From Eledone cirrhosa (Eukaryota), in contig OZ024763.1 in assembly GCA_964016885.1 (NCBI GenBank), positions 1,302,001 to 1,366,000 of the forward strand: a stretch of 64,000 bases of DNA, given 5' to 3'. Below the pieces are notes generated by a model, which saw nothing but the letters and a program-made list of their open reading frames with translations, searched no databases and was not told the DNA's origin. Shown here piece after piece: positions 15,961-16,169 of the stretch. A program made the position numbers and the translations under genes. Each line of letters starts with the position of its first letter. Position 1 is the stretch's first letter.

Positions 15961-15963
<3 letters not shown>

Positions 15964-16088
15964 GGAGTAAGTAAGACCCCGACGGCGGAGCTCAAGCCAT
16001 TTCGACGGCTAATTCTGTACAGAATTGAATACAGAATTAGCCGTCGAAACGGCTTGAGCTCCGCCGTCGGGGTCTTACTTACTCCTAT
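15961..16088. repeat. Foldback palindrome, 59-bp arms (1 mismatch), 10-nt spacer, carrying a hammerhead 3' half
   Basis: 15961-16019 pairs with 16030-16088. Unpaired tail continues to 16165. Flanked by (TA)n. Confidence 0.95.
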
Positions 16089-16169
16089 TACCCACTCTAC
16101 TACCCTAAGTATCGAGTACTTTGGTGCGTTATGGTCCACCTGGTTCCTTACCACTTTTCCCTCGCTATA

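Follow-up and report, generated by a model that had tools for sequence, protein, structure and literature searches.

Insertions of Penelope-like elements have been described as carrying an inverted, 5'-truncated copy and a tail on one side only, and as lying in (TA)n targets (PMC8557442; PMC3846280; PMC8969392). The origin of the inverted ends is named as an open question in PMC8557442, and self-priming was already proposed in 2013 from palindromes at the junctions (PMC3846280). The enzyme of Poseidon, the element of Anolis carolinensis, cuts and extends both strands in vitro, with two start sites bounding the tail and no need for ribozyme cleavage (PMC11167929); the available part of that paper contains no model of inverted junctions. 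The type I hammerheads of Penelope-like elements have C-GAAA, an A-U closing pair, a palindromic loop 3 and UC (PMC4209133; file S2 of PMC8557442), and a helix II of 4-8 bp (PMC4209133). Within the literature covered, which was at the level of titles and abstracts and left most subscription papers out of scope, nothing ties the axis of an inverted insertion to helix II, and nothing applies twin priming to Penelope-like elements. In LINE-1 twin priming, a direct 3' piece is joined to an inverted upstream piece.

The window analyzed here is a stretch of 64,000 nucleotides from the octopus Eledone cirrhosa. The locus of interest within it is composed of two head-to-head 3'-end pieces of a high-copy repeat, set in a (TA)n tract. 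Its parts and its two relatives in the window are:

15924..15963, no strand, (TA)n flank on the left, likely the target of the insertion
15961..16019, minus strand, left arm, an inverted copy of the repeat 3' end that stops at the family short end, without the tail
16011..16026, no strand, 16-bp perfect palindrome with centre TA, overlapping the left arm and the spacer
16020..16029, no strand, spacer of 10 nt, with the axis at 16024.5 on AATT (16023-16026)
16030..16088, plus strand, right arm, a direct copy of the repeat 3' end
16045..16072, plus strand, hammerhead-like 3' half (C, GAAA, helix III with a GAGCTC loop, TC, GGGG) whose 5' core was not found
16089..16165, plus strand, one-sided tail of 77 nt that runs to the family long end and has no mirror copy
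16166..16217, no strand, right (TA)n flank, adjoining the tail
205..291, plus strand, non-folded relative ending at the short end, with a local hairpin at 212-218/227-233
24478..24626, no strand, sister-subfamily foldback with 62-nt arms (24503-24626) and its axis at 24564.5 on TATATA

The 59-bp arms reported in the initial annotation were recovered: both are 59 nt long and 58 of the 59 positions are complementary (98%), the single mismatch being 15999/16050. The foldback has an RNA fold z of -18, equalled by none of 200 shuffles, its DNA hairpin is very stable, and there is a 9-nt direct repeat at its centre. Inspection for a target-site duplication showed (TA)n on both flanks, adjoining both outer ends of the 15961-16165 element. 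A rare variant, 16062C, is present in both arms and has a frequency of 0.3% in sequencing run X1 and 0.9% in run X21; both arms therefore come from one template or one source. The spacer matches the 205-291 copy at 10 of 14 letters when read as a continuation of the left arm and at 6 of 9 as a continuation of the right arm, and slipped duplication of 16030-16038 is an alternative origin for it.

The same annotation had called the locus a Penelope-type inverted insertion, and this was right; the locus has an inverted copy truncated at its 5' end, a tail on one side only and a (TA)n target. The head-to-head copy, the tail at one end, the palindrome at the junction and the (TA)n target resemble insertions of endonuclease-bearing Penelope-like elements, whereas the arms of 59 bp are very short, the tail has 77 nt rather than the 30-40 nt of the published insertions described in those sources, and no ORF is linked to the element. 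As with Poseidon, there are two fixed 3' ends bounding a tail and an AT-rich target, although the evidence for Poseidon is biochemical (PMC11167929) and that for the octopus family is sequence only. The locus itself is ordinary retroelement debris, likely the dead stub of a Penelope-like retroelement.

The motif of this repeat occurs five times in the window (expected, 0.06): twice in the foldback locus, once in 205-291 and twice in 24503-24626. The survey of reads used 15990-16165 as reference and covered 4 of 23 runs, of which X1 gave 14,077 matching contigs, X21 21,170 matching reads, X4 288 matches and X18 none; no RNA data set was listed as containing the sequence. The repeat is thus very abundant, two of the runs each having more than 10,000 matching reads or contigs, and X1 contained 0.71 of the words of 15690-16720. 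None of the pieces listed spans the whole of 15990-16165, so that the foldback centre is without confirmation from the reads. Read depth collapses left of 16032, where the loose ends show the letters of the 205-291 copy, and this copy is therefore taken to represent the family.

Two fixed 3' ends on (TA)n were found, a short one (~16087) and a long one (~16165) that includes the 77-nt tail, a feature the initial annotation had overlooked. Among the loose ends listed for X21, at least 1971+1658 reads end at the short end and at least 2433+5605 at the long end. The short end is used by the left arm, by the 205-291 copy and by the sister copy (24478). The family thus has fixed 3' ends and variable 5' limits, an inverted 5'-truncated copy at the 5' end (seen in the arms of the locus and in read junctions), an optional one-sided tail (16089-16165) and a (TA)n target. 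In X21, 7075 molecules terminate at 16035, on AATT; we infer that these ends represent a restriction cut, a source of bias in that run. In X1, variant letters at 16018-16031 were set aside as a sign of many symmetric foldbacks, as reverse mapping of ordinary copies onto the left arm accounts for them equally well, and they were left uncounted. Scans of sequence collections with the family sequence gave 0 matches; 38 metagenome loci and one viral locus were discarded as short chance matches with a longest alignment of 33 nt. Rfam returned only microRNA-type matches below the gathering score over the element, and the 10 of 187 listed window ORFs that were checked yielded only a GATA finger. The family is new and unnamed, and the kind of insertion is already known.

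The best explanation of the locus, to which we assign a probability of about 45%, is that the arms are two cDNAs primed at two sites during one insertion, as in twin priming. The endonuclease of the element would break the AT-rich target on both strands; reverse transcription would then start from one of the broken ends at the long site (16165) and from the other at the short site (~16087). Neither cDNA would get far: each would halt 16-25 nt upstream of GAAA, where the sequence is AT-rich and contains a small hairpin, and the 3' ends of the two would join head to head through AT-rich microhomology (AATT/TA). A long-site cDNA that halted at the short site would give a tail and an inverted arm with no overlap, as in the reads, and one that ran past the short site would give a palindrome like 15961-16088. 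The hammerhead-like motif would be a passenger. Unlike in LINE-1, the second priming would take place at a fixed start site, and full overlap of the arms is possible.

Read junctions bear on this reading. Among the 13 inversion joints listed, which are the best-supported ones only, the partner lay at 16083-16094 in seven, at 16110-16125 in four, at 16065 in one and at 16032 in one; the 16032 side is censored where the reference stops matching. Matches to the opposite strand were interpreted as head-to-head joins, a reading that the output itself does not state. The excess of partners at 16083-16094 has a binomial P of ~5e-4 for a 15-nt bin at the short end that was picked after seeing the data, and the sister-subfamily boundary at 16083-16086 could inflate the count. 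Three contigs, parsed by hand from the printed letters, join an inverted arm reaching 16027-16030 to a tail starting at ~16080-16082. Such joins are expected if both start sites prime, and they agree with the activity of the Poseidon enzyme on both strands and from two sites (PMC11167929). With one side at the short start site in 7 of 13 joints, the data favor priming at two sites over a snap-back at helix II of a hammerhead. In addition, each arm seems to hold what the other lacks, the tail on the right and the spacer homology on the left, which simple self-copying cannot give. The better match of the spacer to the left-arm continuation also points to two cDNAs, though a slipped duplication explains it as well. 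Counting against twin priming are the lack of a reverse transcriptase or endonuclease ORF linked to the family and the length of the tail, and the shared 16062C means that twin priming requires one template or one source locus.

A somewhat unlikely alternative is that a single long-site cDNA folds at an AATT/TA word or at the small hairpin and copies itself until the short end is reached. The arms, nearly identical and sharing a rare variant, suit such a process, and the self-priming proposed in PMC3846280 is of this kind. The sister foldback, absent from the initial annotation, has a perfect center and an off-site right end and fits it better than it fits twin priming. Its left arm reaches the short end and its right arm halts one base before the predicted cleavage site (24626). 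Axis words in the family are AT-rich and self-complementary, and both foldbacks that have a non-folded relative in the window are centered at or beside a natural micro-palindrome, in one case AATT, where 4-mer palindromes occupy 2 of 40 positions, and in the other TTGATCAA. One contig has a hairpin centered on the apex of the 212-233 hairpin. Self-copying explains neither the junctions of tail only with inverted arm nor the stop at the short end, and with the 205-291 copy as template the modeled cDNA 3' ends at the equivalents of 16023-16031 were paired with a probability of only 0.01-0.13. As a separate observation, the arm end at 24626 is the single hint of a cleaved template, and read depth does not drop there.

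The initial annotation had proposed a more specific form of self-priming, in which nascent cDNA folds back at helix II of the hammerhead, so that the ribozyme would be a hot spot for inversion. The 3' half that it described, C-GAAA-CGGC-loop-GCCG-TC-GGGG, is indeed present at 16045-16072, with GAAA, the A15.1-U16.1 pair, helix III and UH, all features of type I, and GTCGAAA-GGCT-GAGCTC is kept between the subfamilies. Such a 3' half is uncommon by chance: of 5000 shuffled versions each, 71 had it for 16030-16165 and 220 for 205-291. The same loose criterion is satisfied at 27 sites of the window. Predicted pairing favors a competing hairpin, with CGGC paired to an upstream GCCG at 0.64 compared with 0.35 for helix III. 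The CTGANGA that was expected directly upstream of the stem is absent from the 205-291 copy and from both 30-nt loose-end consensuses, in which agreement was low (0.45 and 0.51). Neither CUGANGA nor a UUGANAA variant was found within 40-44 nt upstream in any sequence seen; over 40 nt of upstream sequence, examined in two copies, the best match to CUGANGA has two mismatches. One core word with a single mismatch lies in the spacer, but no helix II accompanies it and the family reads have other letters there. For a type II (permuted) core downstream of the cleavage site, the best words had at least two mismatches. Rfam gave no hammerhead match over the element, and it also misses the complete motif at 37677. 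The 5' strand of helix I is missing at the locus. The hammerhead reading may thus be regarded as half shown, with the 3' half present and the 5' core not found. A tandem array of units that each carry a complete hammerhead, by which a non-LTR retrozyme is defined in bioRxiv 10.64898/2026.07.22.740005, was found at none of three loci, and that candidate was ruled out.

Placing the symmetry axis in helix II is not supported either. The 205-291 relative that had been cited in support is real (87% identity), but the GGCTA...TAGCC hairpin said to be natural in it, considered as a helix II with G10.1-C11.1 closure, has a pair probability of 0.003; GGCTA pairs instead with TAGTC at a probability of 0.76-0.99. 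In the two window foldbacks of the family, the distance from the axis to the downstream GAAA is 21.5 and 40.5 nt, with the axes on AATT and TATATA. A further foldback at 800-878 derives from sequence that follows the complete hammerhead at 37677; this hammerhead belongs to another family, and the foldback is centered at a natural TTGATCAA ~20 nt downstream of the cleavage site; since this center lies outside its ribozyme, foldbacks form without helix II. There is no step in X21 depth at 16004 (22.8, 24, 24, 24.5), and in the 26 animal rows of file S2 of PMC8557442 the core halves are, counted by hand, 12-26 nt apart. In favor of helix II are the 3' half itself and a hammerhead at 35355 with 53 nt between the core halves, after whose example the family may have a core further upstream and a long helix II that could hold the axis. 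The position of four contig junctions also speaks for it: they are found, as is the axis of the locus, at 16-25 nt upstream of GAAA, and the four are in or on the 212-233 hairpin, though the reference reveals only junctions nearby and so favors such finds. Given the stem, the core and the joints, folding of nascent cDNA at helix II is not supported, and we consider it improbable. The disarming of the ribozyme would need no special mechanism, because 5' truncation already removes the upstream core.

The 3' module of the family may instead be a Naiad-like relic of a split or permuted hammerhead and not a truncated type I ribozyme. It shares C-GAAA, the A-U closing pair, the palindromic loop 3 and UC with type I hammerheads, and differs in that no CUGANGA was found, helix III has 4-6 bp, more than in minimal motifs, and any helix II would exceed 40 nt. 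By eye, it resembles the HHR_half_core 3' ends of octopus Naiad in the PMC8557442 supplement, with GTCGAAAC, a stem with a 6-nt palindromic loop and a G run. In the sister subfamily CTGA follows downstream, and octopus Naiad ends have CUGAUGA downstream, again a resemblance by eye. Naiad ends lack the UC, and the octopus family lacks the full downstream core. Nine family motifs had 0 matches in that supplement, and no longer motif is common to the family and Naiad.

An origin at the level of DNA, in which the palindrome was formed or homogenized after insertion through a TA-tract break or cruciform, fold-back repair and later rearrangement of the center, is hardly likely. The rare variant common to both arms, the central 9-nt direct repeat, which resembles templated repair, and the very stable DNA hairpin agree with it, but the left end is one of the fixed ends of the family, at which thousands of reads stop. 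A miniature DNA transposon (MITE) that targets TA and has terminal inverted repeats of 59 bp is a very improbable reading of the locus: its inverted repeats are bounded by TA, but the tail is one-sided, a non-folded relative exists, centers differ and 5' limits vary.

An exon in the window is identical to a stretch of an RERE-like protein of Octopus bimaculoides, and further exons of this gene were placed:

37838-37975, exon identical to a stretch of the RERE-like protein
41317-41367, 44745-44948, 56487-56561, further exons of the octopus RERE (atrophin-family) gene

Residues 1-399 of the RERE-like protein had no match in the window. From the placement of the exons, the foldback element likely sits in a long intron of the octopus RERE gene.

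Several other repeats were noted in the window. A complete-looking type I hammerhead lies in a TA-flanked stub at 35285-35362 (minus strand), with 53 nt between CUGACGA and GAAA, a 7-bp basal stem and an apical hairpin. A minimal hammerhead with a CUGAUGA core is found at 37670-37725 (plus strand), and its downstream segment is the one folded back at 800-878, where it is joined to another repeat end common to 35090-35175. More foldback or inverted structures occur in TA tracts at 63179-63317, 62970-63020, 13708-13803, 10689-11019 and 104-189, the last of which we take to resemble transposon ends around (TA)n. At 16317-16565 a head-to-head, SINE-like pair, 82% alike, surrounds a short TA run and likely represents two insertions; a tRNA match at 13825-13882 may be a SINE head. 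Copies of a repeat at 16615-16650 (plus strand) and 37441-37476 (minus strand), 96% identical, carry a minimal hammerhead whose core is the U3-A8 variant described in PMC4209133. A 60-bp satellite forms two arrays of opposite orientation (20987-22519 and 38853-39842), and a 31-bp array of ~275 units starts at ~45070.

For the wider group, it is tentatively proposed, at odds clearly below even, that the inverted insertions of Penelope-like elements arise by twin priming, with cDNA synthesis begun at both of the start sites flanking the tail, that this octopus family records the process at scale, with junctions accumulating at the point where a long-site cDNA reaches the short site, and that its 3' module may be a Naiad-like split or permuted relic. 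In a family that has tiny copies by the thousand and two fixed ends, counts of junctions in one genome could separate twin priming from snap-back.
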